Part shown: positions 2,134 through 51,488 of the stretch, piece by piece
Numbering within the stretch: the stretch's first letter is position 1
How the letters are laid out: each line of letters opens with the position of its first letter
Virus record (IMG/VR): IMGVR_UViG_3300025736_000033
Location: 1 to 53,263 of that record
Direction: 5' to 3' (one strand)
Origin: a virus
Taxonomy: Duplodnaviria; Caudoviricetes
Length of the DNA stretch: 53,263 nt
The notes under the pieces: generated by a model
The model's database searches: none
What the model saw: the letters and a program-made list of their open reading frames with translations, nothing else
What the model was told of the DNA's origin: nothing
Made by a program: the position numbers and the translations under genes

Positions 2134-2141
2134 CGCTGCTC

Positions 2142-3677: not shown

Positions 3678-3682
3678 AATTT

Positions 3683-4891: not shown

Positions 4892-4962
4892 TGCTTTATC
4901 TCCTATTTCCTATTGGCATCACTGGCAGTATGTCGATCAATGGTGTTGGCATGATGGTTTCT

Positions 4963-5628
4963 CTATGGTGTCATGACATCCTTCGTTACCCAGACTCCGC
5001 TTTCACGCCGCTCGTGCACAAAGTTATTGGAACTGATTCCCTGTCGCCATGAGCCGTCTGCTGCTGGGGGGCCGAAGTAGGTGAAGTTGTTGGTGCTAAC
5101 GATTTCAAGATTACCATCATTGATCTTGACGGTATCTGCTGTAGTGGACATGGACGCTTGGTTCGTCCCGGATGTGAACCTTGCCGCGTGGAGCGTAGTG
5201 AGCGGACCACCTGCCTCGGTAAAGTAGAACCCATTAGACGAAAGCAGGTCCGACGCGTATATCTTGAACTTCTCTGGACCGTCAGGAAGCCCACTGTTAT
5301 TCCACTCGATGAATGAGCTTGAATCTGACTTGAGGAAAATCGTCTTACCTGCCGTCACGAGGATATTCGTTTCTGTGACATTGCCATTCGCCATTACATC
5401 CGAGAGCGTGTTGGTTATTGATCCCGATGCAGTATCCCATCGAGTCGTATCTGCCGCAGTTATTCCACTCGCAACACTTGTGCTATAGTCGGTCTGCTTT
5501 ACCCCATCAGCCCATCTATCGGCCGCGTAGGCGTAGTTGCCAAGAGCGCAGAGGAATGCTGCCGCCACTAAAACTATGACGAATACCGTGGCTGCCAGCG
5601 GAAGCCCTTCTTTGATTCTCTGTTTCAT
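4963..5628 (-). CDS. Signal-peptide-bearing fibre/decoration-like protein
   Basis: 221 aa; basic N-terminus, hydrophobic stretch, AYA cleavage-like site; C-terminal GSWR...ERRESGVWV fibre-like segment; S/T-N rich; RBS AAGGAG. Confidence 0.55.
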   Translation of the reverse strand: MKQRIKEGLPLAATVFVIVLVAAAFLCALGNYAYAADRWADGVKQTDYSTSVASGITAADTTRWDTASGSITNTLSDVMANGNVTETNILVTAGKTIFLKSDSSSFIEWNNSGLPDGPEKFKIYASDLLSSNGFYFTEAGGPLTTLHAARFTSGTNQASMSTTADTVKINDGNLEIVSTNNFTYFGPPAADGSWRQGISSNNFVHERRESGVWVTKDVMTP

Positions 5629-5636
5629 GTTACTCC

Positions 5637-6056
5637 TTATTTCAGTTTGGCCTTGGCCGCTTTCAGAAGCGACTTCTGTAGCTTAGATGCAAAGTCGGGC
5701 GCGTCGATGCCCATCGAGGTGAGTACCTGCTTCCACTCAGCGAGCGTAATTTGGATGGCGGGCTTATCAACAGTCTCACCATCAATAACCAGAGGGACCG
5801 CCTTGCCGCCCGGCAATGGAATCGTGATACCGTCCGCGCACATATTTTCAGCCTTCAGTTTTTTGATGATCGTATCCGGCACGGCAAAAATCATTTTGGA
5901 GGACGCGATGTTATGCTCGATATTCCAGATGAGCGCATCAGCTAGGGCGTTGTGCGCCATGTCGCCGTTGGTTGCGTCACGTTGTAATCTGTCAGTGATC
6001 GCCTTTGCGTCACGCTCTTCCAACTCGATCCATGTTGCCGTCATGCCCTCGCTCAT
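5637..6056 (-). CDS. Hypothetical protein (possibly chimeric at 5804-5831)
   Basis: 139 aa ORF with AGGGAG RBS; GITIPLPGG-coding 28 bp also present at window end. Confidence 0.6.
   Translation of the reverse strand: MSEGMTATWIELEERDAKAITDRLQRDATNGDMAHNALADALIWNIEHNIASSKMIFAVPDTIIKKLKAENMCADGITIPLPGGKAVPLVIDGETVDKPAIQITLAEWKQVLTSMGIDAPDFASKLQKSLLKAAKAKLK
5804..5831. repeat. 28-bp direct repeat identical to window end (53236-53263)
   Basis: tgccgcccggcaatggaatcgtgatacc at both positions. Confidence 0.95.
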
Positions 6057-6103
6057 GTTGCTCCCTGCTTTCCAGTGTTGCTCGTTGTCAATTTGTGTTG
6101 GGG

Positions 6104-6301
6104 TTATCTTTCAAGCTGTATCCATAGCAGGGCAAGTGTCATCGCATACGTTGTAACTATGCCCCACTCTTTGGTCTCGCGATATTCAACTGTTTCGAGA
6201 TTATAGTAGCGGCCATTGTCGTCAACCATGCGCTCTACCTTTGGTAGGCTCACACAACCAGTCATCAGCATAACCGAGATTATCAATAGGGTCTTTCCCA
6301 T
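6104..6301 (-). CDS. Small lipoprotein (lysis/spanin-like candidate)
   Basis: MGKTLLIISVMLMTGC lipobox plus C-terminal hydrophobic segment. Confidence 0.6.
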   Translation of the reverse strand: MGKTLLIISVMLMTGCVSLPKVERMVDDNGRYYNLETVEYRETKEWGIVTTYAMTLALLWIQLER

Positions 6302-7929
6302 TAGAAACTACTCCATAATTTATTCGTACCGTTAACGCGGAAAGTGTAGTCGGTCACAATACCAGCCGCGTTGGTCGTTGCTGTTATCCATGAATCAGTA
6401 TCGAGAGCAGAAAGGTATATTTTTTCTCTTACGGTTGCTGAGCCTGCTACGTCCAATGTGGTAGTGGGACTAGCTGTTCCAATACCTACCCTATCATTAG
6501 CAGCATCGGTATGAATTAGGTCAGTATCGCCTGTTCCTTCTACTTTGAAATCGATATCTGAACCATTATTGTTAATCGTAATACCAGCACTACTCCCATA
6601 TATAGCACCGCCTAAAGTTTCCCTCGTCATTTGCAAAGGTACGGCACTACCAGTAATATTTTGAATAAGGAAATCTCCGGGAACTCCAACCTTAGTCTGC
6701 CAAGAGTAATCATCGGTGGTATAGTACATTCCCACAGCCCCTCCAACCGTAGTGTTCTCAATCTTAAGCGGTATAGAATTTATGCTTGATACATGTAGCG
6801 GGTTAGCAGGACTATTTGTTCCGATTCCTACATTACCCACCGTGGTAAGGCTTACCCCTGCCGCATTGGTGCCTGTGATGCTGGCATAGCCGACGTTGGT
6901 TATGCTGTAGCCGCCGCCGCTGAGATTGCCGCCTAGCTGTGGGGTTGTGTCCTCGACTATGTTTTGCAGGTAAAGATTAGACACCCCGCCCCATATCGGG
7001 TCAGTTTCCGCGTCAGCGGAGATGTATGATACGTTACCCGTCCATGCGATCTGAACATTCGCTCCAGCATAATTGGTAGCAAAACCACCACCACCTAACA
7101 GGCTCGATATATCAACAAGTCCGCCGCTGGTGATTGCGTTTGTGGTGCCAGCCGCGCCGCTAATCACGTCCCCAGCATCTACTGCACCTGTGGCCGTCAG
7201 CGATACGCCTGCCGCGTTGGTGCCAGTGATGGATACATCACCGCCAGCCAAATGATATCCACCAGCAAACTGAGCGTTGAAAGTGTTTGTTCCGTGGGAA
7301 CCATAATCACCAGACCCATCTGACAGCACTACGCTATGTGTATTGGTTACTTGTGCCCCATCACCAAAGGCTAGTGAGCCATCGCAGTTGTTTGTGATAA
7401 CAGCATCAGTTCCACCAAGGATGGTAGAGCCATCACAGTTGGTGTATATCGTATTGTTCCAGCCGCCAAGGATCGAGCTATACTCTGAAGCATCGTCTAT
7501 CTTGTTGGATGTACCGCCGCCTATGAAGTTGTAGGACGTATCATGCTCAATGGAGTTCAGGAGACCAGCGGCTATCCCACCGAACCTTGAGTTGTTCTTA
7601 ATATCATTATCCCAGCCACCACCTATGATGGAGTAGTCAGCATCGTAATGAAGCTTGTGACCTCTACCACCAACTATCACTGAGTACTTTGTCTCCTCTG
7701 TTGTGCTGGACTGGATGTCGTTGTTACGGCCACTTACGATAACCGAAGCAGTTGCGTTCGTCTGGATGACGTTGTTCGTACCAGACAGCACAGCGGCCTG
7801 AATTAGCCCTGAGTAATTAGCCCCACCAGATGTCCTGGATGGAGCATTTGACAACTCTATATTCATTTGGTCTGCGATAAGCAATGCAGGGAATGCCATG
7901 AACGCCATGACGAAAATAATGTACTTCAT
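6301..7929 (-). CDS. Tail fibre/adhesin-like protein with N-terminal signal peptide
   Basis: 542 aa; repeated S-x-I-x-GG-x-x-N-x-I beta-helix units, GNVGIGT/RVGIGT fibre motifs; MKYIIFVMAFMAFPALLIA signal-like N-terminus. Confidence 0.75.
   Translation of the reverse strand: MKYIIFVMAFMAFPALLIADQMNIELSNAPSRTSGGANYSGLIQAAVLSGTNNVIQTNATASVIVSGRNNDIQSSTTEETKYSVIVGGRGHKLHYDADYSIIGGGWDNDIKNNSRFGGIAAGLLNSIEHDTSYNFIGGGTSNKIDDASEYSSILGGWNNTIYTNCDGSTILGGTDAVITNNCDGSLAFGDGAQVTNTHSVVLSDGSGDYGSHGTNTFNAQFAGGYHLAGGDVSITGTNAAGVSLTATGAVDAGDVISGAAGTTNAITSGGLVDISSLLGGGGFATNYAGANVQIAWTGNVSYISADAETDPIWGGVSNLYLQNIVEDTTPQLGGNLSGGGYSITNVGYASITGTNAAGVSLTTVGNVGIGTNSPANPLHVSSINSIPLKIENTTVGGAVGMYYTTDDYSWQTKVGVPGDFLIQNITGSAVPLQMTRETLGGAIYGSSAGITINNNGSDIDFKVEGTGDTDLIHTDAANDRVGIGTASPTTTLDVAGSATVREKIYLSALDTDSWITATTNAAGIVTDYTFRVNGTNKLWSSF
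6971..7084. repeat. 114-bp direct repeat, copy 1 (shared by two fibre genes)
   Basis: Matches 9241-9354 with 2 mismatches; encodes FATNYAGANVQIAWTGNVSYISADAETDPIWGGVSNLY. Confidence 0.95.
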
Positions 7930-7943
7930 TATGTTATATCCTC

Positions 7944-10900
7944 TTATAGTTTATTGATTGTAAATGTTGAATATATTGATGTATCACCCGCATTAGTCCA
8001 TACAGGCAACTCCCATATACCGACAGGTCCACCAGCGGTCATATCGATATATACTGTATCTCCAGCAGTAAGATAAACAACGGCATTGATGCTCATAGAG
8101 CAATAAGCTATGGCTATGCCTTCATCGAAAACCGCACCCTGATTTGCTGGATTTTTGTGATCGCCATTTATATTCAGCCATATACGTATTGTGTTTTGCA
8201 CTCCAACACCAACACGCCCGTTCACTTGAGCATTGATTAAATAATATCCGGTCGATGGCGCAGTGAATGTGCTATCTGCAAACGCACTAGCGGTATCAAC
8301 CTCTTCTACCATCACTACTTTGTAGAACTCGCCGCCATTCGCATACTGCGTGACGTTGTTACGAGCTATCACTATAACCGCCGTGCCACCCAAACCATCT
8401 ATCTCAACCTGTTGTGCATTGTTGGAAGCCAGATTGGCCGCAATGGATATATCCTGTAGGGCGTTAGTGGAAATAGCCGCCGCTATAGATGTATCCTGCA
8501 ACCCATTGGTGAGGATGGCCGCTTGCGCCGCCGCCTCTACCGCATCAATCAAGTTAGTATGCGCCGCAAGGCTAGCGGCATGATCTGCAATCGTTACGTC
8601 TTGCGTCCCGTTAGTTGCAAGGTTGGCCGCAATAGCCGTGTCCTGTATCGCATTAGTAGATAAGTTCGCGTCAATGCTTATGTCTTGCAATGCATTAGTG
8701 GATAGGTTCGCCGTAATAGCTGTATCTTGTATCGCATTAGTAGAGAGATTCTCCGCAATAGCTGTAGCCTGTGCGCCATTCGTAGTGTTAGCCGCATCTG
8801 CCGATGTCTGAGCCGCTTCAGCAGTGTTGCTGATTGCTATATCATCTCCAACCAACACAGCTATCTCACCATCGATTCCCTGCAAGTGGCTGGACACATC
8901 GCCAGCCGCCGCAGTGTAGTTTGTCGGGGTGAAGTTTGCCGCTATGGCGTTGGCATTCGTGGTGCCTGAGCCAGAAGGCGCATTTGTCAGAAATGAATTA
9001 CCGTCAACCGTAGGCACTGTCGCAAATGTATTGTTTTCCCAATTGAAAACATTTGCCCCATTTGAGCTGGTCACAGTGCGGCTATCCCAATCAAGAGACT
9101 CCTGCCCATATTTTGTTTTAAGGAAACGAGTTGACCAATTAACTGACTCTAAATCAGCAGAGTCTCTGAGTTGGTACTGGTTCCAATTGACGGATATCTT
9201 ATTCGCATCCGTTCTAAGCGTTCGGTTACTGATACCGCCATAGAGATTAGACACCCCGCCCCATATCGGGTCAGTTTCCGCATCAGCGGAGATGTATGAT
9301 ACGTTACCCGTCCATGCGATCTGAACATTCGCTCCAGCATAATTGGTAGCAAAAGCGCCAGTGCCCGCTACGGAATCTACATACGCCTTGTTAGCTACAT
9401 CCAGTGCATCTACAGGAGTCTGGACCACATACATATTGTCAGCATAGATAGCATCTGCCCACAGGTTGCCCTTGGTTATCCGCTCAATAGTGATGTTGTC
9501 CAGTGTGATGTTGTTAGACAAAGCCGTGGCCGTGAGGGAAAATCCGCTCTGATTGAAGGCAGGGACCGTAAGCGTGTTAGTGTAGGTGATATCGCCTGTA
9601 TCAGCCGTGCGCCTAAAGACATTTGTGTACCCGCCCAGTCGCAGCGTGATGATCTCGTATGAATCATTAACATCAACTTCGTAGCTCACTGTATACATGT
9701 AGCCAGTTGTAATAGATATGGCATTACTAGGAACCAAGAACCCTGCATTCCCACTGAGCACCGTGATATTACTCAGCGCGGCATTCCAAATAAAGTTGGT
9801 TGCTACCCAGCCATCAATCCCATTCGTGAAGCTTCCGTTGTGTACCAGATCAATACCAGTTTCAGTATCGTCAGCTACTATTAACTCCCTAAATACGTTA
9901 GTGCCCGCCCTAAGGTATCTGGCGTCTGTGTATGGGAGGTCAAGGCTGAACGTGACATCATTTGTGAGCCAAGGGTCACCTATGGTAATGCCTGCTCCCT
10001 CTAGCATCTTTCTGCTCTCCAACACGACGTCGGTAGCGCCTACTTGCAGGCTGTTGCTAAATATGCCATCGTCGGCGTATATATCTTCTATGCCCGTAAT
10101 GATAGTATCGCCATCGCCATAGATATGACCATTCGCCAGAATGTTGGATGTTATTGTGATATTGCCTGTGAACGTAGCATCCTGTGCAGTCAAGTCGGCC
10201 AGTGTGGTATCGCCGCCAACAACAAAGTTCGTGGATGCCTCCACATTCCCATTGGTATTGAACGAAAGCAACTGTTCCCATGTAGCAGTGGCGCCCCGGT
10301 AGTACCAGAACTCAAGACTGAAAGGGGCTCCGGCCTCCTGCTCTATGCTCCAAATATTCGTCGTGCCAGTATCCCAGAAGGCAAGGCTCTTGGTCTTGCT
10401 TGTTGTAGTACCATCCTTGATTATTACTGAAGGGTGTCTGGCTCCATCTGCCTGCACAGTCAGCAATGCTGAGTTCCCGAAGGTAGGTAGCGTAGGGATC
10501 GTTTTTGTATTGATAGCAACAGCTCCATTGTTGGAGCTCACGTAGATACCTTCCCCCTCCGTATCTCCAATGAAGAATCCGCTCATGTCGAGATTGGTAG
10601 ACGCTTCGTTTCCTACTGCCATAACACTGGCTAGATCCACTGAGCCCGTAGCTAAGTCCGTGTAGGCGTTGGCATTAGATACAGCCAAATTGGTTGCCAC
10701 TATATCTGCAGCAGTAGCGAAATTGGTCAACGATATGTAGTTAGCATTCGTTGCAGTAGACAGTTCTATATCCGTAGCAAAGACTGCATCTATAGCATTG
10801 GTCGTAAGCGTGATTACAGCGTCACCTGTGTTCGTTCCACCGCTTAGGAAGCCACCATCCACAGTTACAGAAGTGATGTCGCCGTCCTGTGAGTTGGTAT

Positions 10901-11552
10901 TGAGCCCTATGATAAGCGTAGGTGAAGTGAAGTCCACGTAGTTACTGGTTGATTCAACCATCGTGAAGTTCGTATAGCCTTCTGCTCTCGGCAGGTACGT
11001 AGCGAACGCAGCCCCGACAGTCAGGTAGTTAGCCAGGTTCGTAGGCGTTACCGGGAAAGGGTATACATTGGTGTCATCGTACAGTGAGTAGCTGACCGCT
11101 ATTTGGCCCTGGGCCAGTGTGCGTGCGATATTAGTAGTCGCTCCATCGTAAGCCCATACTTCCATCTTATAGTTGGAATCAGGCGGGATGTTGGTACGCG
11201 CTACGGAAAAGCTTATCGCATTGGCTGCTATGGTGATGTTCGTAGTGATATTGGTTGTGGCGCCCGATACCGAAGTAGAGGTATATGGTATGTCGATATA
11301 CGTGGTCTTGTCTTTGCTGACCCGTGCATTGACGTTGTAACCTGCAACGCTAACCGTATCGCCTGTGTTGTCTGCATAGAATGAGAGCTCTACACGCTGG
11401 TCATTCTGGCCTATCCACTTCCACCTAAAGGAATCCCAGTTGCCGGTGATACCGTTAATGTCTACAGAAGCACTCTCAGTGTTCGTCGGAAAACCGTAGC
11501 AGTTCAGTGCCGCTACAGCAAGTAAGGCTATGATTCCAATGAGTTTTCTCAT
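7944..11552 (-). CDS. Long tail fibre with signal peptide, coiled-coil repeats and C-terminal C1q-like domain
   Basis: 1202 aa; MRKLIGIIALLAVAALNCYG N-terminus; 14-aa repeats AIxANLSTNAxQDx; C-terminal FTAPSTGYY...VYLTAGDTVYI C1q-type motifs; NGSF..G..GW carbohydrate-binding-like segment. Confidence 0.8.
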   Translation of the reverse strand: MRKLIGIIALLAVAALNCYGFPTNTESASVDINGITGNWDSFRWKWIGQNDQRVELSFYADNTGDTVSVAGYNVNARVSKDKTTYIDIPYTSTSVSGATTNITTNITIAANAISFSVARTNIPPDSNYKMEVWAYDGATTNIARTLAQGQIAVSYSLYDDTNVYPFPVTPTNLANYLTVGAAFATYLPRAEGYTNFTMVESTSNYVDFTSPTLIIGLNTNSQDGDITSVTVDGGFLSGGTNTGDAVITLTTNAIDAVFATDIELSTATNANYISLTNFATAADIVATNLAVSNANAYTDLATGSVDLASVMAVGNEASTNLDMSGFFIGDTEGEGIYVSSNNGAVAINTKTIPTLPTFGNSALLTVQADGARHPSVIIKDGTTTSKTKSLAFWDTGTTNIWSIEQEAGAPFSLEFWYYRGATATWEQLLSFNTNGNVEASTNFVVGGDTTLADLTAQDATFTGNITITSNILANGHIYGDGDTIITGIEDIYADDGIFSNSLQVGATDVVLESRKMLEGAGITIGDPWLTNDVTFSLDLPYTDARYLRAGTNVFRELIVADDTETGIDLVHNGSFTNGIDGWVATNFIWNAALSNITVLSGNAGFLVPSNAISITTGYMYTVSYEVDVNDSYEIITLRLGGYTNVFRRTADTGDITYTNTLTVPAFNQSGFSLTATALSNNITLDNITIERITKGNLWADAIYADNMYVVQTPVDALDVANKAYVDSVAGTGAFATNYAGANVQIAWTGNVSYISADAETDPIWGGVSNLYGGISNRTLRTDANKISVNWNQYQLRDSADLESVNWSTRFLKTKYGQESLDWDSRTVTSSNGANVFNWENNTFATVPTVDGNSFLTNAPSGSGTTNANAIAANFTPTNYTAAAGDVSSHLQGIDGEIAVLVGDDIAISNTAEAAQTSADAANTTNGAQATAIAENLSTNAIQDTAITANLSTNALQDISIDANLSTNAIQDTAIAANLATNGTQDVTIADHAASLAAHTNLIDAVEAAAQAAILTNGLQDTSIAAAISTNALQDISIAANLASNNAQQVEIDGLGGTAVIVIARNNVTQYANGGEFYKVVMVEEVDTASAFADSTFTAPSTGYYLINAQVNGRVGVGVQNTIRIWLNINGDHKNPANQGAVFDEGIAIAYCSMSINAVVYLTAGDTVYIDMTAGGPVGIWELPVWTNAGDTSIYSTFTINKL
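8420..8790 (-). repeat. Degenerate 42-nt (14-aa) tandem repeats in fibre gene
   Basis: AIAENLSTNAIQDT/AITANLSTNALQDI/SIDANLSTNAIQDT/AIAANLATNGTQDV etc.; boundaries approximate. Confidence 0.8.
9241..9354. repeat. 114-bp direct repeat, copy 2
   Basis: Matches 6971-7084 (differences at 9243 and 9282). Confidence 0.95.
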
Positions 11553-14500
11553 TAACGTGTTCCTCTAGTTCTTGCATTTCTGGCCCTTGACCGGCCATAA
11601 CTACTGTTAATCAATTCTGGTTTGCGAGACTTGCCCCTACGCCAAAGCCTTTGACGTTCTTTAACGTCCTCTATATTAGCCGAAAGCCATGCCCGATAGC
11701 CAGACTTAGTAGCATCTCTGCTGCGTAGGTATGTATCGGAAGACACATTGTTATCCTGCCTATCGTCCGACTGCTCTATTCTTGCTACCTTAATATCAGT
11801 CAGTATCTCTTGCTTTGTCTTGCCTTCAATGGATATACCAAACTTGTCTGCGTCATCTTTTAACTCTTCCCTGATATCTGTAGGCTGGCTGAACCGCAGG
11901 AACCGGCGCAAGCCAGGTATCTTCCTAGACATCTCAACCATCGTAGCGTTTCCTTCCGGAGTCTTACAAAGCTCATATAGGTCAACAAGCCCAGCGGCTA
12001 TAGGATTAGACCACGGAATCAGTTTAGAAGTGGCTCTTGCAAGACGATCCGGAGATATTTTCACTTTCATCTTTGCCGCCATCTCTGAAATATCTTGCGC
12101 TATCTTAGGTGATGTTACTGTAAATTCCTTATTAGCTGAAACATCAGAATATCCACTCCATATCTTCTCTTTTGTCCACGTATCATAATTGCCGTGATAG
12201 GCTGTGCATGCATTCCATACAGGAGGAGTAATCGTTGCTGATTCTACTGGTAGCAACTGGAATGTAGCATCCAAAAGCTGCCCGCTCCAAGGTCTACCCG
12301 CCATTGCATCTGACAACGACTGGCCAATAGCACTAAACACTTGCTGCCCTTGATCTTTAGCTATCGCTATATATGCATGTCGCTTGTTGCCTTCCTTGTC
12401 TGTCTTCGAAAACCCTAACGGAATTATCCATTTAGTTGCTTTCTCCCTATCGGAAACAGCGTCATAGCCTTCTTCATCGACAGCTCTAAATCCTTGTCCG
12501 TTTGCATAACCTAGAGCTATTAGTTGAATTATCTTTAGCGCAGACCCCCCAGGATCTGTCTTCATTGTGCGCAGGGTACCTCTTGTACCCTGTATGGCTG
12601 CGTTGAAGTAAGGTAGTATGTTGTCCGCAAATTTAGCTGTCCGACCTCCCTGTGCAAAATCAAGCATGTTCCTAGCAATGAAAGTAGCTTCCCTTGGGGT
12701 AGATCCATTCTTTATAGCCCTGTTCCGGACTGCTAGACGCATTGCAGTTTCAGAAGTCTCACCCAAATATGCCAAGGCGTCTGACAACTGTGCCAATGCT
12801 GTAGTTCCACGTCCGCGTGCGGTCCACGGTTTCGTCAGCAGTTTGCCCTGTGTTGAAAGATAATCCATGCCGCCGCCTTCTTTAAGATAATCATTATATG
12901 CACCTGTACGCATGAATGAATCCTTGGCTACGGCGCCTAGATCAGATAGCTCCTGCACAAAAGCACGAGGAATAAACTTTGAATACTGTCCTGAATTGAA
13001 CCATGCGAAAGCCATATCACGAGGTAGATTGGACAAAGCAAATTCAGGATTGGCACCAGTAGCAATAAACTTCAGAGGCTTTGTTCCAGTTATCCACTGA
13101 GCGAGATTTGCTACATCCCTGCCCAGTGCCGGCGTAAGCCCATTCCACTGTTCTGCCAATTTGCGCGGCATAGCCAACTGAATTTCGCGGCCATCTTGGA
13201 ATGCTGTTACAATACCTTCATCGTTTTTGAGTTTGGATTTGCCAACTTCTTTGAAGCCCGTTGGATCGTTGGGGTCAGAAACTGTCATTCTATGAATACG
13301 ACCAACTTCTGAATCCGGATTGGCTCTGATAAAATCAGCCAACTCAGAATTTGCCTGGTTCTTGAATACTCGAGACTGTGTGCGACCGATAACTTGGGCC
13401 AGTAGGAAGTTAGGGTCATTGACCATTGCGCTTTCGCTGCCCTCTTTGAGAGAGTCTATGCCGCTATCCAACTGCCTAGCGCCCTTGGTGTCTGTTCCCA
13501 CCTCTGGATCTATGAACTCAACAAATTGACGGGGAGAATAGAAAGGCTGATTCTTACTCAATTCAGCATGAGTCTCTTTCGATATAAGTCCTGCATCGCG
13601 TAACTCAGTGAGCTGGCCTCGTAACACAGTCCAATATTCCTCTGCCGCGTCCTTAACGCCTTGCTTAATAACGGGGTCTGTATCAGCTTCAAATTTAGCA
13701 AGCCATTCTTTGCTCTGTTCTGGCGTTGTGCCTTGACGACTCTTGAGTTTCACACCTTTGTCAGCCTGTATCCCTGTAGCCTCTATGTTACGAGTGAACT
13801 CAATGTATTTGCTCAGAACCTTGATCTGCCCGTTCGGCAACACATCTGTAACGGATTTCCATGCGTCTTTATGAACCCTATTTGCCCACGCACTTGCGCC
13901 CTGGGCAAGAACCTTTGACCTGACCACATCTTCAGCACCGGCATTCTTCAGCACACGTTTCACATCTGCTTCTTGGTCAACTATCTGTCGAGCCAGAAAT
14001 TGCAATACTGGTTCTCTTTGCTTCTTTATGTTCGCCGCCAATTCAACATCATTCTTATCAAACGCTGCATCAGCCTTTGTCCCAAAATTGCCAGCTTCTT
14101 CTGGGACCGCTTTGGCGGCTGTACGGGAACCTATGACCCCACCGGCAGCTCCTCCTAAAATTCCACCAGATACGATAGCATTAAGGAATTCATCCATCGT
14201 CAAAACAGCACGGTCTTTATCAAACCCAAACTTCTCTATAAGATTAGTTCCTACGGTCTGGATAAGTTCCTGAGTACCCTCTTCAACTGCGCCTTGCGCG
14301 ATACGCTTTACGGCTTTCTGCCCAGCTCTACCAAGCATTCTTCCAAATGGTAGAGCCTCTGTAGCAGCATTCCACGCTCCATTCAAAAGCCCCATCACAT
14401 CAGACTCTTCTACTGTCTTACCGGCTTCTCTCGCCTTGCTGAAACTCCCTGCTCCCTCGGTAAGCCCAAATATGATAGCGGCGGGAACGGGGCTCTTGGT

Positions 14501-15295
14501 CGCTATTGTCGCGGCCATTGCCGTTCCAAATAGAGGCAGAGCTTCGGATGTGACCGATAAGGCATTGGCTACTGGGTTACTCTTCCAAGTAAGGTTCTTA
14601 GGTTTAGCTATTGCTTTGCCCTCTGCCTTCTCGTTGAACCATGTGCTAAACTCTTTGCTTGCTTGTGCGGCCTTCTCTTGGGAAGGCTGTGCGATACGAG
14701 CCAACGGGAATGAGCCTATTGTACTACGCGGAGATACAAGCCACTCAGATATATTACCGAGACTCCCTACCGTGCGTAGAGTGCCACGAAGGAAGCCTGC
14801 AAATGGATCGAGTATTTCTCTGGCCGCTATACCCGCAACTGATTCTGAAAGTCCTTCACCTAACTGTTCTACTTTGTCCCTATCTTCCTGAGTGACTTGA
14901 GGCGGGGGTGGCGGCACTGTAGTAGCTTCTATTGCTTCGTCAAAGAGCTTCTGAAGTTCTGGATCCTCATGCTCCGGAAGGATACTGCGCTTATCAGGAT
15001 CGGCGCCTAGATTAGCCATGCCGTCTACCGCCTGTGTGATAGGAGAGGGGTCTTTGGGCTCATCGAATTCCGCAAGAATATCCGAAATATCGTCATCATC
15101 TGTACCAGTAGAAACCGCATCAACTTCAGCGAGGATATCATCTACACTCGGTTCTTCTGTTATTGCTGGCTCATCAAACTCAGCAAGGATATCTGAAACA
15201 TCGTTGGGACCAGCAGGAACTACAGGGGTTGCCGCTTCCGTAGGATCTTCGAACTCATCTAAGATATCTTGTACTGAACTAGCCATATTAAACAC
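11552..15295 (-). CDS. Large internal virion/ejection protein (large polyvalent protein, LPD38-like C-terminus)
   Basis: 1247 aa; acidic N-terminal DILAEFDEP repeats, EEGTQELIQ motif, NPEFALSNLPRD, LDFAQGG and PYFNAAIQG motifs typical of this family. Confidence 0.7.
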   Translation of the reverse strand: MFNMASSVQDILDEFEDPTEAATPVVPAGPNDVSDILAEFDEPAITEEPSVDDILAEVDAVSTGTDDDDISDILAEFDEPKDPSPITQAVDGMANLGADPDKRSILPEHEDPELQKLFDEAIEATTVPPPPPQVTQEDRDKVEQLGEGLSESVAGIAAREILDPFAGFLRGTLRTVGSLGNISEWLVSPRSTIGSFPLARIAQPSQEKAAQASKEFSTWFNEKAEGKAIAKPKNLTWKSNPVANALSVTSEALPLFGTAMAATIATKSPVPAAIIFGLTEGAGSFSKAREAGKTVEESDVMGLLNGAWNAATEALPFGRMLGRAGQKAVKRIAQGAVEEGTQELIQTVGTNLIEKFGFDKDRAVLTMDEFLNAIVSGGILGGAAGGVIGSRTAAKAVPEEAGNFGTKADAAFDKNDVELAANIKKQREPVLQFLARQIVDQEADVKRVLKNAGAEDVVRSKVLAQGASAWANRVHKDAWKSVTDVLPNGQIKVLSKYIEFTRNIEATGIQADKGVKLKSRQGTTPEQSKEWLAKFEADTDPVIKQGVKDAAEEYWTVLRGQLTELRDAGLISKETHAELSKNQPFYSPRQFVEFIDPEVGTDTKGARQLDSGIDSLKEGSESAMVNDPNFLLAQVIGRTQSRVFKNQANSELADFIRANPDSEVGRIHRMTVSDPNDPTGFKEVGKSKLKNDEGIVTAFQDGREIQLAMPRKLAEQWNGLTPALGRDVANLAQWITGTKPLKFIATGANPEFALSNLPRDMAFAWFNSGQYSKFIPRAFVQELSDLGAVAKDSFMRTGAYNDYLKEGGGMDYLSTQGKLLTKPWTARGRGTTALAQLSDALAYLGETSETAMRLAVRNRAIKNGSTPREATFIARNMLDFAQGGRTAKFADNILPYFNAAIQGTRGTLRTMKTDPGGSALKIIQLIALGYANGQGFRAVDEEGYDAVSDREKATKWIIPLGFSKTDKEGNKRHAYIAIAKDQGQQVFSAIGQSLSDAMAGRPWSGQLLDATFQLLPVESATITPPVWNACTAYHGNYDTWTKEKIWSGYSDVSANKEFTVTSPKIAQDISEMAAKMKVKISPDRLARATSKLIPWSNPIAAGLVDLYELCKTPEGNATMVEMSRKIPGLRRFLRFSQPTDIREELKDDADKFGISIEGKTKQEILTDIKVARIEQSDDRQDNNVSSDTYLRSRDATKSGYRAWLSANIEDVKERQRLWRRGKSRKPELINSSYGRSRARNARTRGTR

Positions 15296-16255: not shown

Positions 16256-16496
16256 TTTCCAGCTCCTTATGTCCTAGACATTTGCAATAGTTTCTAAGTT
16301 TATCTTCTAATCGTTGTTTAATCCAGCCTGCATCTCCACCACCGCAACATTTTGGTTCGCCTTCGAACCGTTTACGTCTTCGGAGATTCCTTCTCGTATA
16401 GAGCATCTGTTCCGCAAATGCTATCAGCAATCGGGTAGCTTCGTCCTTTGGGTCTAGCTGCCTGATCTTCTCTACGAGTTTTGTAAATGCTGTCAT
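16248..16496 (-). CDS. Hypothetical protein
   Basis: MTAFTKLVEK..., start overlaps previous stop (TAATG) and stop overlaps next start. Confidence 0.55.
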   Translation of the reverse strand: MTAFTKLVEKIRQLDPKDEATRLLIAFAEQMLYTRRNLRRRKRFEGEPKCCGGGDAGWIKQRLEDKLRNYCKCLGHKELENG

Positions 16497-17776
16497 TATC
16501 CACCACCTTGATGATCGGCTGGACCTGACCCGTCGAGACCGCAATCATCCTCATACGGGAAGCCACTATCAACTCCACCCGACTTGTGGTAATGATCGGT
16601 GAAGTAATCCCAAGGCGTGAAGCATGTAGGACTACAGAGACTGGCACCATAGATGCACTCGAGCGTATCAGTATCAGGATAATCCTCAATACCATCAGCA
16701 TCCGTGCAATGGTTCCACTGCCATACAGGACAGTAGATATCAGAAGCGTGCCAACGTGGAGCCCACTTCTCTATACGGGTTGCGGTACTGCCGTCATTGA
16801 CTCCGATTGTAAGCGTTCCAAGTATGAACTTGCCTACGAGTATGTCTTCCTTCTTTTCGCCACTAGCTTTCAGGTCCATCCCGCGAGGATTGATACGAGT
16901 ATATGGATTGACACCACCAGCCAAAGCGCACCAGCCCAGATCGTCTGCCTGTGTGTGGTCGCTGATGCTGTAGCTCTGATCCGGATATGTCCCTGCTCCA
17001 GCAGGAGCACTCTTGTGCGCCCGTAGGATAGGAATGTATCTGCTACCATCATTGGCACCTACACCCCAAAGTGAATCGCATTTTGTTGCAGCAGGAAATA
17101 CAGCTACTTCTATATAGACTATCCAGTTGCCGGCAGCCCCTGAAGGACTTTTGGCGAGTGTTGAATGATCGAATTTGAAATCTACATACTCAGGAGCACT
17201 CCCTAAATCACCACCAGGCCATTCCCAAGAGCTATTGCCAGCATACACAACACCGTTGTAGACCCGAAGGATATTGGAATATCGTTCTTTGCCTGTTAGG
17301 TTGGCATTGTGCTTCGGCTCTGCGTAGAAGGGGCCATTGTATCTGCCGAAGATCTCAAAGCCGCCACCTGACTTGTCCCGTACTCCAAGGTTGTAGCCTG
17401 TGCCTGTGATACTACGGATGGCCTCTGCGATAGCTTCGTCATTGTTCTGGCCAGCCTCTATGATATCTACCTTCGGTTCCTCTTCCTCTTTGATAGAGTC
17501 TTCGACTTCGCGGATATCCAGCTTGGTCTCGAGTATCTTCAACCGGTTCAGCAGATTCGAAGGGTCCAGCTCGGCTGCTGCTGCACGCTGTTCCTTCCAT
17601 GCTGAGTCCTGCTCACCAGCTACGAAGTCTTGGAAGTCCTGACGGATACCAGCAGGCATAGTGGCGTTCTCTCCAAAGAACATCTCAGAAAGTTGTTCAC
17701 GCTCCTTGGGATCAGCCTTGGACGCAAGGAAACTGTTGATTGCGTCATTAGCTGGTTTGTCAAAGTCTTCATCCAT
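16496..17776 (-). CDS. Hypothetical virion/tail protein
   Basis: 426 aa, translationally coupled within the structural operon; Cys-containing C-terminus. Confidence 0.6.
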   Translation of the reverse strand: MDEDFDKPANDAINSFLASKADPKEREQLSEMFFGENATMPAGIRQDFQDFVAGEQDSAWKEQRAAAAELDPSNLLNRLKILETKLDIREVEDSIKEEEEPKVDIIEAGQNNDEAIAEAIRSITGTGYNLGVRDKSGGGFEIFGRYNGPFYAEPKHNANLTGKERYSNILRVYNGVVYAGNSSWEWPGGDLGSAPEYVDFKFDHSTLAKSPSGAAGNWIVYIEVAVFPAATKCDSLWGVGANDGSRYIPILRAHKSAPAGAGTYPDQSYSISDHTQADDLGWCALAGGVNPYTRINPRGMDLKASGEKKEDILVGKFILGTLTIGVNDGSTATRIEKWAPRWHASDIYCPVWQWNHCTDADGIEDYPDTDTLECIYGASLCSPTCFTPWDYFTDHYHKSGGVDSGFPYEDDCGLDGSGPADHQGGG

Positions 17777-19218
17777 TAAGGTATCACCGGGTTGTCTGGG
17801 AGAATTACAGCGTAAGTATTGAGATAGCCATCCGTAGCGTCATTTGATGTAATTGTCAACCATGTCTCACGCATCGCTACCCACAAGCCAAGATTGGAAA
17901 GATAGTCAATCCTACCGCCCTTATGAGCCTTCAAGTTATTCAGCAAAGGGCGATCAGAAGAATCGTTTGCCCAGTTGACTGCTGACTGTTCGCTCGTGGT
18001 TACACGCCTGCCGAATATAACACGCCATACAACGCCTTCATCTGAGGTCCGTATCTCCTGCTTGAAATTGTAGATGTCACCAACAGCACTGTTATTGCCT
18101 ACCGTCGAACCAGTACCCGCCATCTTGCCTATGATAAATAGATCAGACAACCCAGAATCATGTATCTTGCGTCTGACACCGCTATTCCTATAAGCTGTAT
18201 TGTCTATGTCGAGGATGGCCTTGTTACTCAACGTCGTCAATAATGCGTCAGAAGTCTCCTTAGTAAGATTCGGAATCACGACAACAGCACGTTTCGGAAG
18301 TCCGGAAGATATATCCATATCTCGTTCTACAACGAAAGCAGCAGATAGGCTGGTATTCGTATTGACCACTTCGATATCGCGTGACATGAATACTTCGCCA
18401 TCGGCCCGCTGCAGCACCGTTACATTCTTGGTAGCGATACCAGTACCGTCACGATCCTCTGCACTACGCCATGCATTCAGCATACCTTGAGCACTGTCGA
18501 TAGGTACGCCGAATGCTGTCTGGTGATCTACCCTCATATAGTCATGGAAGTTCACACCAGCAAAATAGGAATCCTCGCCCATAGTTCTAACAGATACAGG
18601 CAGGCTGGTCTCTGAATTCACATTCGTCCAAGTGACCTTGCGCTGGAACACATAGAAGGTGCAGGTACGGTCTCCACGAGGTTCTGTACCCCATCGCCTA
18701 GCTTCTATCGTGTAGCCAGAAAGCTCCAAGTCAGCATCTGCAATGCTTATTTCGCATACGCCTCGTGAGCTCCGGTCAAGGTATCGGTACTCCTGAACAA
18801 CAGTATCTCCAGAACCAGGGTTATACTGAAATGACCTGTAGACTTCTACGCGCTGACTGTTAACTGGCTGGGGAAGTGTAGCCGCCGCGATAACACTTGT
18901 GGCGCCTGCAACCGTAGTCAGCCTTATCAGCTTCTGGCGAATAGTCACCCATCTGCGGTTGTTCTCTATAACGATCACATCAGCGTTCGAGTAAACGCCT
19001 GTATAGGTCTCACCGTCTACTGTAGGGCCCGTAATCTGTGCGACCCCCATCAAGGTATTGCTCAGAGACTTAGCGACAGATGCTTTGATCTGAGTCCATT
19101 CACGCCACATTGTGCGGGAGTTGGCATCAGAAGTGGCATGTGTAACAGCCTCGTCAGCATCAGACCGAACGAATCTGGCTTCGCTCTCCGGTATCGTGGT
19201 TCTAAGTTTGCTTGCCAT
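17776..19218 (-). CDS. Hypothetical virion/tail protein
   Basis: 480 aa, beta-rich, in tail operon. Confidence 0.6.
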   Translation of the reverse strand: MASKLRTTIPESEARFVRSDADEAVTHATSDANSRTMWREWTQIKASVAKSLSNTLMGVAQITGPTVDGETYTGVYSNADVIVIENNRRWVTIRQKLIRLTTVAGATSVIAAATLPQPVNSQRVEVYRSFQYNPGSGDTVVQEYRYLDRSSRGVCEISIADADLELSGYTIEARRWGTEPRGDRTCTFYVFQRKVTWTNVNSETSLPVSVRTMGEDSYFAGVNFHDYMRVDHQTAFGVPIDSAQGMLNAWRSAEDRDGTGIATKNVTVLQRADGEVFMSRDIEVVNTNTSLSAAFVVERDMDISSGLPKRAVVVIPNLTKETSDALLTTLSNKAILDIDNTAYRNSGVRRKIHDSGLSDLFIIGKMAGTGSTVGNNSAVGDIYNFKQEIRTSDEGVVWRVIFGRRVTTSEQSAVNWANDSSDRPLLNNLKAHKGGRIDYLSNLGLWVAMRETWLTITSNDATDGYLNTYAVILPDNPVIP

Positions 19219-19225
19219 AAGTTAC

Positions 19226-20287
19226 CTACTGACTGGGGCTGTCTTCGTCTGTGGTCATATTTGTGAGCACCCATATCTTCCTGACATGGATGTGTGAACT
19301 CAAATCAGTTATCCGCAAAGCGAACTCGTGGCTCTGTGGTGTGGTCTCGAGATCAATCGTAATACGGTTATAGTTTTCTTCGAAATTGTCTATAACTGCT
19401 GTGTGCTCGTTACCGAAGTCTCCGGTATCCAACTTCACATCAAATACTATCTCGCCTCGTGCAGCAGTCGTATTGTCGAATTCGAATGCTACCTGGCGTA
19501 CAGGGAACGGACGCTGGTTAGAATCAGTCAGAGTCCGAGTTGTATAGCGGAAAGCTGTATTGTCTTCAAGGTACTTAAACAGCTTCTTCTTCTGGAGTGC
19601 GTATACGAAGTTCACGACATCCGTGCTGGGGTTAGAACCTATGACCCTGCGCTTATCCCTACCTATACGTAATACCTTGTTTGCGAACGTACTGAGTGCT
19701 GTACGGACGTTCACTGAAACCTCTGTGACCGCTCCACCAGCCCATGAGTACAATCCGTTGGTATTGGATGTGTAGGCTACTTGGTCCAAAGGCGTAGCCC
19801 GATTCGCCGCTGTAGCGAACATCTGTTCTTCTACCTTGATATGGCGGTAGTCGCCATCAAATGATAAAGCATTAGGAATCCAGTATCCACCACCGGCGCT
19901 GGCTACATACATATCAGTAGTCCCAGCAGGGAAGAATGCTAATAGGCTATCGGCTGTCTCATCGAAAGCTATACCGTCAAGGTCTTGAGGAAAGATGACA
20001 TCATCATATTCAGGAGACCCGTACAGTAGGGTTGTGCCATCAATGCGCCAGTTCCTACGAAAGAACCAAGTCCAGTCATCGCCTGATATCGTGTTCTGTT
20101 TGGCCGTGTAAGCATCGCCTGTACCGAGCTGTGCCGTATTGGCTACCAGTCGGCCAGGGTACTCTATATCGAAGCCGTACCCATCAGGAGTAAAGCCATC
20201 TTGTAGTTGCTGCACAGCCGTTTCAGTGTCCAACCCAGCAGGGAAGACAGAGGCGATTGGCAACCAGCGCATATCGGATCCAGCCAT
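19226..20287 (-). CDS. Putative tail nozzle/stabilisation protein
   Basis: 353 aa, beta-propeller-like short strands then C-terminal beta sandwich; position after adaptor; RBS AGGAGG. Confidence 0.5.
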   Translation of the reverse strand: MAGSDMRWLPIASVFPAGLDTETAVQQLQDGFTPDGYGFDIEYPGRLVANTAQLGTGDAYTAKQNTISGDDWTWFFRRNWRIDGTTLLYGSPEYDDVIFPQDLDGIAFDETADSLLAFFPAGTTDMYVASAGGGYWIPNALSFDGDYRHIKVEEQMFATAANRATPLDQVAYTSNTNGLYSWAGGAVTEVSVNVRTALSTFANKVLRIGRDKRRVIGSNPSTDVVNFVYALQKKKLFKYLEDNTAFRYTTRTLTDSNQRPFPVRQVAFEFDNTTAARGEIVFDVKLDTGDFGNEHTAVIDNFEENYNRITIDLETTPQSHEFALRITDLSSHIHVRKIWVLTNMTTDEDSPSQ

Positions 20288-20299
20288 AACCGCCTCCTG

Positions 20300-20686
20300 T
20301 TAGTCTTCGTCGAATGATGCTATGACTTCGGAATCTGTAGCTGCCGCCGCCGCTTTCTGGTCTCTATCCAGCAAGGCGCGTCTGAGCGCACTGGCGAATT
20401 CAGCCTTTACCGTGTCCAAGTCCTGATCGCCTGTCTTGTGCCCGTACTGAGTCAAGTATCTGTCGATACCTGCTTCAAGCACAAAGCCATGATCGGCGTC
20501 TATCGCAACAGTATCGTCAGTCGCTGTTACATGTGCAATAGCTGCAGAGAGGTTCGTATCAATCGAATAGATGTTTAACGCATTATTCGTTGCCCGGATG
20601 AAGTCATGCTTAAAACGATCAGAGCTGGCCTGCATGTTGTATTCATACAGTTTGGTTGCCCAAATCTTACCAAGGTTGAGTGCCAT
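20300..20686 (-). CDS. Putative head-tail adaptor
   Basis: 128 aa helical protein between capsid-associated and nozzle-like genes. Confidence 0.45.
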   Translation of the reverse strand: MALNLGKIWATKLYEYNMQASSDRFKHDFIRATNNALNIYSIDTNLSAAIAHVTATDDTVAIDADHGFVLEAGIDRYLTQYGHKTGDQDLDTVKAEFASALRRALLDRDQKAAAAATDSEVIASFDED

Positions 20687-20695
20687 CGCAGCCCC

Positions 20696-21136
20696 CTAGT
20701 CGTCCCAAAGTTGCAGGAACGCTTTGACAGTCTTATTCGAATCAGTAGCACTGTGACCACGAAGCTCAACACGAGTCCGGACAAGCAACATAGGCTCAAA
20801 GCCGTTTGTGGCCGAACCAAGCTGTACACCCGAAGTATCGTGAACAGGTACGCGAGGATAGATAGGAGCCGATGAAACAAATGCACCGTTCGAATAGATC
20901 GTCTGTTCCGTATCACAGTTGACGTTCGTGAGACATACGAGAGATACATTACCAGTGACAACTGCTTCGTCAGCACTGAATGTGAGCCCTACGATGTAAC
21001 CGTCAATAGGCTCAGTGGTGTAGGTAGTGTTCGTTGTGTCTTCTGATACTTCAATGACTAACGGAATACCGTCAGCTCCAGCGTAGACCAGACCAGCAAC
21101 TAGACACACTACGAATGTGAGAAGTAGATTACGCAT
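20696..21136 (-). CDS. Signal-peptide-bearing virion-operon protein
   Basis: 146 aa; MRNLLLTFVVCLVAGLVYA signal-like N-terminus; RBS AAGGAG. Confidence 0.7.
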   Translation of the reverse strand: MRNLLLTFVVCLVAGLVYAGADGIPLVIEVSEDTTNTTYTTEPIDGYIVGLTFSADEAVVTGNVSLVCLTNVNCDTEQTIYSNGAFVSSAPIYPRVPVHDTSGVQLGSATNGFEPMLLVRTRVELRGHSATDSNKTVKAFLQLWDD

Positions 21137-21157
21137 CGTTTGCTCCTTAAAGGGCAG

Positions 21158-21175
21158 GGGGGTCCGAAGACCCCC
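21158..21175 (-). terminator. UUCG-tetraloop hairpin (terminator/processing site)
   Basis: Minus-strand GGGGGTC-TTCG-GACCCCC; U-tract weak. Confidence 0.5.
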
Positions 21176-21186
21176 ACATCCCTAAA

Positions 21187-21858
21187 TTAGAGTTCCGCGC
21201 CAAGCCACGCATTCGTGGTAGGGCCGTCACCGTTCGGGTTGGAATACAGGATAGCCTGTTCACCAGCGTCTAGTTCGACTGCCGAAGAATTCCACGAGCC
21301 AGAGGCTGCAATAGCCAACAGGTTCGTAGCATCAATGCTGTTCTGTATATACGCAACCGTTACACCAGTACCGGTAGGACGCGCAAGTACAATCGTGTTT
21401 GTTATCGCAGTAGCAGAACCACTCGATGTAAACACATTAAGACCAGCTGCAATCGTATTCGTTGATCCTTCGATCACCGCAACACTAGCCTGTGCATTAA
21501 CCGACATGCCAGCAGATGTGATGCTGCCTTCGGTAATGATATCGCCGTTGTACTCTACTGCCATTGTTTCAACGTAGATACGATCAGGGTTTTCGCCTGC
21601 ACCCTTTTTAGCCAGTACGCCGTAACAGAGACTCGAAACGAACGTGACCATTACCATCAGTCCGACTGCGATTGCCAGGCCGTTACGAACGAACCCACCT
21701 ATTGCGCCATCACGATTCAGGTCAATACCCATCTGCTTCTCCAATATACGTACTACTGCTTCAAGGCGAGTAACGCGCTTCTCTAGCCCGCTATTCTGTT
21801 TCTTCTCAGCTTTCGGCTCTGCCGGCTCGCTGGTAGCTTTATTTTCAGCCTTCGCCAT
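21187..21858 (-). CDS. Membrane-anchored or exported decoration-like protein
   Basis: 223 aa; charged/coiled-coil N-terminus, DLNRDGAIG loop, hydrophobic helix ending CYG, S/T-N-rich beta domain; immediately after capsid gene. Confidence 0.65.
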   Translation of the reverse strand: MAKAENKATSEPAEPKAEKKQNSGLEKRVTRLEAVVRILEKQMGIDLNRDGAIGGFVRNGLAIAVGLMVMVTFVSSLCYGVLAKKGAGENPDRIYVETMAVEYNGDIITEGSITSAGMSVNAQASVAVIEGSTNTIAAGLNVFTSSGSATAITNTIVLARPTGTGVTVAYIQNSIDATNLLAIAASGSWNSSAVELDAGEQAILYSNPNGDGPTTNAWLGAEL

Positions 21859-25776: not shown

Positions 25777-26088
25777 CTATGCTGGTACTTCTGTTTCGGC
25801 ATCCTTGTCGATACGTTCTATTGCGTCGTCAATGTCGCTTTCAAGGTCTTCCTGAAGGCCAATAGACTGCCAGTAAGCACCTACGTACTGGTTCCGCATC
25901 TCAACGCAAATATCTGTCGCCATCCCAAGCCGTACCAAATCAGCCTGGCCTTGCTTCAATATTCTTCCCAGTATCTTGAACCCCGGCTTTGTAGTTATAG
26001 CCTTCAGTTCCAGTAACTCGCGCTTCGTCATCTCTGTGACTGTGCCACAGATGTTCGGAGCGTATACCACTTCATCTAGTTTGCTCAT
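25777..26088 (-). CDS. Small protein downstream of portal
   Basis: 103 aa, overlaps portal stop. Confidence 0.65.
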   Translation of the reverse strand: MSKLDEVVYAPNICGTVTEMTKRELLELKAITTKPGFKILGRILKQGQADLVRLGMATDICVEMRNQYVGAYWQSIGLQEDLESDIDDAIERIDKDAETEVPA

Positions 26089-38873: not shown

Positions 38874-38905
38874 TTGACGCAACACAAGAAAAGGAATGCA
38901 AGACC

Positions 38906-39601: not shown

Positions 39602-39718
39602 TGCAGAGTGACGGCGCCTATAGGCTTTTTAGCTTGTGGGCGCCGGTAATGCAGCTTATACCCGGTCACAAGTCCGGGAAGGGATAAACCGAAACACAAA
39701 CAGGAGAGGGATAAGGCA

Positions 39719-51429: not shown

Positions 51430-51488
51430 TAGTTATCCTCCTAGAAATTCTCCGCGTGAGTAAGTATGCGCGGCCCACTGTTTGCTAA

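Follow-up and report, generated by a model that had tools for sequence, protein, structure and literature searches.

Tailed-phage morphogenesis is, in the textbook account, entirely cytoplasmic, and the question raised by the locus described here is whether a tailed phage may send its fibres across the inner membrane before they join the particle. The window, that is the whole 53,263-bp stretch of DNA that was analysed, is a linear IMG/VR virus record (IMGVR_UViG_3300025736_000033; completeness estimate, 85%) in which the minus strand holds almost all genes. Five minus-strand open reading frames (ORFs) are at issue: a 221-aa Ser/Thr/Asn-rich protein (4963..5628), a 542-aa fibre (6301..7929), a 1202-aa fibre (7944..11552), a 146-aa small protein (20696..21136) and a 223-aa protein adjoining the capsid gene (21187..21858). 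We propose, with a probability of roughly 0.45, that Sec exports these five as fibres, that signal peptidase processes them, and that they are added to the particle once the envelope is breached. Judged from their sequence features, export by Sec is the part of this proposal that is quite probably right, while presence of the exported proteins on the particle is less sure than their export.

A sequence-only reading of the window had placed Sec-like hydrophobic segments on all five ORFs, and the translations bear this out. Four of them start with classical n-h-c signal peptides, namely the 221-aa protein (a 35-residue signal, nt 5524-5628, ending AYA↓A), the 542-aa fibre (residues 1-19, nt 7873-7929), the 1202-aa fibre (residues 1-20, nt 11493-11552) and the 146-aa protein (residues 1-19, nt 21080-21136); the 10-residue Kyte-Doolittle windows of these segments reach 2.90-3.33, and a Lys or Arg precedes each. 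The 223-aa protein has a long charged N-extension and then a membrane-type helix (residues 58-80, nt 21619-21687) that is preceded by Arg and whose best 19-residue window is 2.23, at residue 60. A small -3/-1 site follows every segment (CYG↓F, LIA↓D, VYA↓G, AYA↓A and CYG↓V), that of the 223-aa protein being weak, with CYG↓V followed by hydrophobic residues and Lys-Lys. The lipobox L-[AS]-[GA]-C is absent from all five, the Cys of NCYG or LCYG having Asn or Leu at -1.

Signal peptides were called by rule, backed by controls and by conservation: 75 greedily chosen ORFs were scanned for an N-terminal 10-residue Kyte-Doolittle window of at least 2.4. Seven passed, comprising the four ORFs with classical leaders, the minus-strand ORF 41337-41783 and two plus-strand ORFs (32410 and 36271) that are probably not genes. 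With the same rule, none of 16 T7 proteins was flagged, and in lambda three of 19 were (Lom, holin S and Rz, all genuine membrane or exported proteins), including none of the 15 head or tail proteins. Together with the conservation across homologues described below, these controls uphold the earlier contention that Sec-type signals on fibre-like late proteins are unusual for phages. Moreover, an AGGAG-like Shine-Dalgarno (SD) motif lies 5-9 nt upstream of each of the five start codons, and the 1202-aa gene starts on the last base of the gene upstream; the leaders thus belong to the translated proteins. That the segments arose by chance or from miscalled starts is hardly credible, given an SD motif at every leader-containing start, no alternative in-frame Met near the cleavage sites in the translations, the conservation among homologues and the clean T7 and lambda controls.

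The 1202-aa fibre continues after its leader with a conserved all-beta N-terminal domain (residues 21 to ~165, nt 11058-11492), then a variable fibre with 14-residue tandem repeats, including six copies of a 42-nt repeat (..NLSTNA.QD..I.; 8399..8797, repeat family D1), and finally a C-terminal domain. With its first 420 residues as the query, two homologues were found, P0121 (59% identity) and P0122 (31%, from an NCBI metagenome-assembled genome), which have differing signal peptides and the same mature start, FPTN; a metagenome scan added seven further loci (six distinct sequences), all seven with a leader, so that the leader is kept in 9/9 homologues of the N-domain. In the metagenome loci the predicted cut falls 0-3 residues before the conserved domain. 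The conserved N-part spans ~145 residues with invariant RTN(I/V)P-type motifs, whereas the distal parts differ between proteins; that of P0122 does not align with the 1202-aa fibre and was judged beta-helix-like by eye only. A low-confidence AlphaFold2 (AF2) model of the N-part (predicted local distance difference test score (pLDDT) 34.9, from a 3-row alignment) is all-beta over mature residues 1-132 and was not used to assign a fold. This is the modular build typical of a receptor-binding protein, with a conserved N-domain and exchangeable distal parts. The T7 gp17 and lambda J, Stf and Tfa proteins are likewise modular and trimeric, with a constant docking part at the N-terminus and distal parts that vary, and are encoded late near internal or tail genes, but they are leaderless.

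Directly upstream of the fibre gene stands that of a 1247-aa leaderless, large virion-type 'polyvalent' protein (11552..15295, minus strand; Pfam LPD38, E 4.5e-6; phrog_9854 and phrog_14770), the stop of which overlaps the fibre start by 1 base. In three of the metagenome loci (L009, L011 and L014) the fibre gene again follows a very large leaderless protein, the one in L011 being 52% identical to the 1247-aa protein over 869 aa, and the fibre gene is translationally coupled to the large virion-type protein both in the window and in L014. IMG/VR scans with the 1247-aa protein and with the fibre N-domain revealed no close relative.

The second line of conservation comes from the 223-aa protein, which combines a charged N-extension, bearing an amphipathic helix and a D-x-N/D-x-D-G loop, with a C-terminal fibre knob at residues ~118-223. 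Its AF2 model (pLDDT 81.4) contains a helix at 24-43, a long helix at 55-84 and a confident beta knob at 121-223. Among 1.84 billion representatives it has 53 homologues, and the counts of the knob family exclude P0046, an unrelated repeat protein, leaving 52. A signal is present in 48 of the 52, as 29 short classical leaders and 19 long forms, the latter with a charged 50-65-residue N-extension, a D-x-D/N-x-D-G loop, a hydrophobic run and a small -3/-1 site; in nearly all signal-bearing members the hydrophobic run closes with a small -3/-1 site, and the four members without a signal (P0016, P0033, P0032 and P0048) are fragments or have doubtful N-termini. The knob matches the C-terminal end of a tailspike depolymerase (24qj_A; Z 8.7, root-mean-square deviation 2.7, 88 residues), a chain of an entry titled 'chaperone-substrate complex' (6o38_A; Z 8.2), and also CBA120 TSP4 (Z 7.5) and the Pa223 capsid spike (Z 6.5), although matches with Z below 8 may, as the tool warns, reflect merely a common arrangement. 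Additionally, Foldseek comparison with the BFVD viral models gave 154 matches at E<=0.001, most of the named ones being tail fibre, minor tail or collagen-like proteins; PDB sequence searches with the proteins yielded nothing useful.

As a side observation on this family, residues 44-55 of the 223-aa protein, and the corresponding part of at least 16 long-form homologues, form a conserved G-x-D-x-D/N-x-D-G-K-x-G loop that resembles an EF-hand calcium loop. It stands in the N-extension just before the membrane helix, and the eukaryote-like P0046 repeats the motif four times.

These patterns bear on whether the proteins leave the cytoplasm at all. They might instead fold there, with the helices acting as virion docking or membrane-inserting elements or as inner-face tethers until lysis, which would keep to the textbook account of how tailed phages assemble; hydrophobic segments do occur in the ejection and tape-measure proteins of other phages, and the long cytoplasmic N-extension and helix of the 223-aa protein look more like an anchor than a leader. 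However, the positive n-region and small -3/-1 site are kept across dozens of divergent homologues, the conserved fibre domain always begins 0 to 3 residues from the predicted cut, and the short and long forms of the knob family have only their signal features in common, so that we consider assembly without export improbable. The signals are conserved across divergent homologues while the sequence drifts, and since all four features persist (a positive n-region, a hydrophobic core, the -3/-1 site and a constant spacing from the domain), selection would appear to act on recognition by Sec and signal peptidase I, not on mere hydrophobicity.

Leader-bearing genes are also found at the same place beside the capsid gene in other phages. 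The true relatives of the window, L006 and L007, are recognised by the large terminase (30-32% identity, E 1e-64 to 1e-65), portal (24-25%), capsid (27-28%), decoration-like protein (28-35%) and a 480-aa protein (26-28%), and in both the capsid gene is followed by a leader- or anchor-bearing fibre-like gene, a small leader-bearing gene and a 120-aa gene. The small genes (9849-10319 in L006 and within 12138-12635 in L007) both start with signal peptides and correspond to the 146-aa protein by position and size only, with no detectable sequence similarity (BLASTP against the L006 counterpart was not significant, E 0.14). The 146-aa protein itself is predicted to be a beta-sandwich, its Atlas model matching clusters of viral hypothetical proteins over residues 19-146 with TM values of 0.75, 0.71 and 0.69, and a word search found a single relative, 98% identical.

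The knob family adjoins the capsid gene in three unrelated phages as well (L002, L003 and L004). L002 further encodes a fibre of >1145 aa with an N-terminal hydrophobic leader, which shares a fibre segment with the 542-aa protein. The tail region of L003 (12487-15293) has four consecutive leader- or anchor-bearing ORFs, and two of these and the knob gene have leaders ending A↓Q, a habit of Bacteroidota. In L004 the knob gene (9137-10249) lies between a Mu-like protease gene and a Mu-like major capsid gene, and its product carries a leader, a complete phrog_1731 'head and packaging: virion structural protein' domain (E 1e-29), a fibre and the knob, a build seen also in P0036. It is thus a candidate for a leader-bearing head fibre in an unrelated phage, although this single case is not decisive because a downstream Met could give a leaderless form.

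The homologues of the 542-aa fibre present a mixed picture. This protein, with GGxxN-type repeats, two VGIGT...L.V motifs and a single Cys pair (165, 182), has as its nearest homologue P0056 (49% identity, E 1e-42), in which the leader is present; P0056 and P0121 each sit on a 5559-bp contig. Leaders occur in 14 of 63 homologues (13 by rule and P0070 by eye), whereas the remaining 49 have ordinary leaderless phage-fibre N-termini. The C-part gave a weak tblastn match to the putative tail fibre of Roseobacter phage CRP-345. A 120-nt module is 97% identical between the 1202-aa gene (9241..9360) and the 542-aa gene (6971-7090; both minus strand, repeat family D2), which suggests a recent exchange of fibre modules between the two leader-bearing fibre genes. 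The 221-aa protein has no homologue in the fetched loci, and its Atlas feature matches are weak (<=0.88).

Do the exported proteins then reach the particle? A cultured phage offers a parallel. In the Cellulophaga podovirus phi18:3 (KC821620; Pachyviridae), three adjacent late proteins, gp085, gp086 and gp087, all start with signal peptides, are annotated in GenBank as 'structural protein ... experimental MS/MS proteomics' (MS/MS, tandem mass spectrometry), and have PHROG matches to tail protein, tail fibre and virion structural families that begin at profile position 1, as well as to pectate lyase; the other nine MS-annotated structural proteins are leaderless. The host of phi18:3 belongs to Bacteroidota, its leaders end A↓Q or S↓Q, and no capsid-adjacent leader-bearing pair was seen in it. 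For the window, a virion role is favoured by the lack of any leaderless fibre-like protein besides these, by the fusion of the L004 knob to a head-domain protein, and by the synteny of the fibre with the large leaderless virion protein and the knob matches to tailspike, fibre and capsid-spike domains.

All the signal-peptide evidence would also fit a set of exported proteins that never join the virion, that is surface fibres, receptor-masking or receptor-destroying proteins, or superinfection-exclusion factors whose N-domain binds an element of the envelope and not the tail. The MAT fibres of Bdellovibrio bacteriovorus have a signal peptide, an invariant beta-rich ~130-aa N-domain, a long trimeric phage-like fibre and a swappable tip, with an S74 (PF13884) chaperone-protease end in 13/21, and their export and surface display have been shown experimentally (PMC10769870). 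MAT fibres are cellular, encoded on the predator chromosome and cell-anchored, whereas the proteins of the window lie in a phage structural operon; S74 (PF13884), unlike in many MATs, was not found in the proteins of the window by Pfam, being confined to distant homologues of the 542-aa fibre. Consistent with a non-virion function, leaders occur in 14/63 of the remoter homologues of that fibre, several of these 14 carry PF13884, and one of them, on a 246-kb contig, is probably a cellular surface protein. Lom, flagged by the rule in lambda, is a precedent for a leader-bearing non-virion gene in a tail region, and Cor and Llp are further such genes inside phage tail regions.

A lipoprotein-like ORF also lies right after the fibres of the window, where a 65-aa ORF (6104..6301, minus strand) has a hydrophobic run ending ..MTGC and a start that overlaps the end of the 542-aa gene. 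Its lipobox was judged by eye only, and no family match was found for it; it is probably also a late phage protein with a Sec-type signal, and may be an outer-membrane lipoprotein resembling Cor/Llp or an o-spanin. In L009 (6012-6284) and L011 (10074-10379), too, ORFs with a comparable lipobox come after the fibre genes. Nevertheless, a non-virion role would leave the window without a leaderless fibre-like protein to act as receptor-binding protein, and it accords poorly with the translational coupling of the fibre gene to a large virion-type protein in the window and L014, with the L004 fusion of the knob to a head 'virion structural protein' domain and with the MS/MS annotation of the leader-bearing phi18:3 proteins as structural; we regard it as unlikely, though still a serious competitor.

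Several points weigh against export followed by joining of the particle. Searches of Pfam, PHROG and NCBIfam gave no match for any of the five proteins, and with no match to a known fibre or tail family their assignment as virion parts is drawn from how they are built and where they lie. The phi18:3 proteins are analogues and not homologues of the five, with no sequence similarity, and their MS/MS annotation is silent on leader removal; likewise, the MAT fibres share with the fibres of the window a signal, an invariant beta-rich N-domain, a fibre and a variable tip in a comparison by architecture only, and what they document is display of such a build on a cell surface. In the 223-aa protein of the window, Lys-Lys follows the helix and the cleavage context is poor, so that this protein may stay membrane-anchored rather than be cleaved. 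Cys pairs are present in only two of the five proteins, the 542-aa fibre and the 146-aa protein (68, 74), and paired cysteines, which commonly accompany periplasmic folding, were for that reason set aside as a mark of export. No lysis cassette or lysis gene was recognised in the window. Finally, what is directly observed is how the signals are built, that they persist in divergent homologues and in unrelated phages, that the proteins have a modular, fibre-like design and that their genes lie in a structural operon; from this we infer the actual export and cleavage, the presence on the virion and the timing of joining.

Based on these findings, we propose that the five proteins would cross the inner membrane and be cut by signal peptidase I, the 223-aa protein possibly staying anchored by its helix, and that they would fold and trimerise in the periplasm, while the leaderless capsid, portal, tail and internal proteins would assemble in the cytoplasm. 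The two sets would meet only once lysis breaches the inner membrane, whereupon the conserved fibre N-domain would dock onto the particle. More broadly, several tailed-phage lineages may assemble in two compartments, with heads, tails and internal proteins in the cytoplasm and a Sec-exported, periplasm-matured host-recognition set, composed of fibres, spikes and the capsid-proximal knob protein with its small partner and including a head-side fibre, and would become infectious only when lysis mixes the two pools; this wider proposal is offered tentatively, as a possibility that has somewhat less than an even chance.

Sec is already known to serve late phage proteins in lysis, as described for the fOg44 lysis protein Lys44, the signal-arrest-release endolysins, the T4 RI antiholin and Rz-type spanins (PMC6116005, PMC8385771). 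The use of Sec and the cleavable or anchoring signals are alike, but those proteins are effectors or regulators of lysis and are not fibre-like, and the five proteins have no lysis-family match in Pfam or PHROG. A more distant parallel is rotavirus VP7, an outer-layer protein of a non-enveloped virus that has a signal peptide, matures in the endoplasmic reticulum and is added late (PMC13011347). It is a conceptual analogue only, an unrelated protein of a eukaryotic virus whose particle enters the compartment, whereas here lysis would open it. A full-text literature search, of incomplete coverage and lacking most subscription journals, returned no description of signal peptides on tailed-phage fibres. 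What the window adds is the conserved capsid-adjacent pair, the ~50-member knob family with short and long leader forms, the fusion to a head domain and the Thr-Asn signature described below.

Should the export of host-recognition parts be routine, periplasmic chaperones, disulfide bonding or envelope enzymes could assist the folding of fibres, infectivity would depend on the Sec system and signal peptidase of the host, and lysis would serve for assembly as well as for release. A lack of transmembrane segments or signal peptides has been taken as a mark of phage origin (Benler et al., 2018; PMC6199706); with exported fibres, a missing signal peptide would no longer separate phage fibres from cellular adhesins. 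Such export would also bear on the making of engineered phages and recombinant receptor-binding proteins.

The leader-bearing proteins share a further trait, an excess of Asn preceded by Ser or Thr, which had been read, tentatively, as a sign of modification by a periplasmic glycosylation system in a host of the Planctomycetota-Verrucomicrobiota-Chlamydiota (PVC) group. The earlier counts were reproduced, with Ser or Thr preceding 5/7 mature Asn in the 146-aa protein and 2/16 in the capsid protein. Against 1000 shuffles per protein, [ST]N amounted to 51 versus 22.6 expected in the 1202-aa fibre (p<=0.001), 17 versus 9.8 in the 542-aa fibre (p=0.009), 5 versus 1.5 in the 146-aa protein (p=0.004), 5 versus 2.4 in the 223-aa protein (p=0.08) and 6 versus 3.5 in the 221-aa protein (p=0.11). 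The Thr-Asn (TN) counts, tested against 2000 shuffles, were 37/14.3, 14/5.2, 3/0.9, 4/1.3 and 4/1.8 in the same order, exceeding the shuffles in all five (p values across the set, 0.07, <0.0005, <0.0005, 0.04 and 0.02). Thr precedes 62 of the 190 Asn in the five mature proteins (2.66-fold) and Ser 22 (1.35-fold), so that the claimed TN/SN enrichment holds for TN, while the enrichment of SN is slight; N[ST], with the residues in opposite order (NT and NS), shows none in the five. Because all eight Thr-Asn codon pairs are used, the excess lies at the level of the protein and is not a DNA-word effect, and a DNA-level cause was ruled out on that ground.

The excess recurs beyond the window. The 15 leader-bearing ORFs of the related loci contain 81 [ST]N versus 41.8 expected, with 43 N[ST] (ratio 1.03), whereas the ratio of [ST]N in the 51 other ORFs of these loci is 1.31; it is 1.78 in the knob family and 1.7-3.3 in the five proteins of the window. 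Homologues of the 542-aa fibre reach 1.20 when leaderless and 1.34 when leader-bearing, and TN as a general fibre trait was accordingly retained only in part; TN is at chance in T7 gp17 (5 versus 4.0 expected) and lambda J (1 versus 4.7). The glycosylation reading can draw on the reality of the excess at the protein level, on its recurrence in leader-bearing ORFs of related loci and on the several invariant columns of the fibre N-domain that are TN pairs. However, known sequons show no excess, N-x-S/T, D/E-x-N-x-S/T and D[ST][ALIVMT] being at chance in all five proteins (for N-x-S/T, 22 versus 22.0 expected in the 1202-aa fibre and 10 versus 9.5 in the 542-aa fibre), TN is to our knowledge not a recognised glycosylation motif, and a structural role would account for invariant TN pairs within folded domains. 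The glycosylation reading is thus unsupported, and most simply the TN excess is a structural trait of this class of leader-bearing proteins.

The host proposed with it fared no better: two scans of 185,579 species genomes gave no relative and the window has no tRNAs. Taken with the sequon counts, this makes TN motifs acting as periplasmic glycosylation sites in a PVC-group host a very improbable explanation; the host data hold nothing for or against the PVC group as such. The SD-type ribosome sites, together with the lipobox ORFs downstream of the fibre genes in the window, in L009 and in L011, indicate only that the host is probably a diderm in which SD sites are used.

The remaining genes place the window among tailed phages. 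By PHROG matches, 28712-30445 encodes the large terminase and 21931..22878 (minus strand; phrog_371 and phrog_4523, major head protein) an HK97-type major capsid protein, which is leaderless and 27-28% identical to the L006 and L007 capsids. The gene at 26085-28271 is interpreted as that of the portal because of where it lies and because its product is 24-25% identical to the 734-aa and 736-aa counterparts of L006 and L007, the family search having given no match naming it as such; it has no match among 50,697 GenBank phage records, which puts the lineage far from cultured phages. The window has no recognisable gene for a tail tube or a tape measure, and from this and the gene order a short-tailed phage is suggested.

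Several observations concern other parts of the window. Positions 1-4900 have a G+C content of 0.54-0.56, compared with 0.47-0.50 in the fibre region, and encode three leaderless proteins rich in Ala, Gly, Gln and Arg (402, 511 and >711 aa), probably internal or ejected proteins, the 402-aa one having a PHROG match as 'virion structural protein' and one of the three falling in phrog_8003 of that name. The ORF at 41337-41783 (minus strand; 148 aa), which passed the hydrophobicity scan, lies outside the structural module, ends its N-terminal hydrophobic run in a canonical lipobox (..LSGC) and has no family match. On the plus strand, directly after the gene 38855-39601, a complete type-P5 twister ribozyme occupies 39602-39677 (Rfam RF02684, 62.3 bits against a gathering threshold of 37.6, E 1.2e-10), covering model positions 1-58 of 58. 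Between 32648 and 35663 (minus strand), neighbouring ORFs share short identical peptides, for example RAPQQAAGEW.SVE in 33462-34082 and 34956-35663, and PTPTA.EKGGRG at the ends of 34013-34768 and 33244-33615, which points to repeated DNA segments in the early region. The simple-repeat ORFs at 41987-42193 and 51433-51711 (minus strand; SRSRS.. and WLWLWL..) are probably tandem DNA repeats rather than genes.

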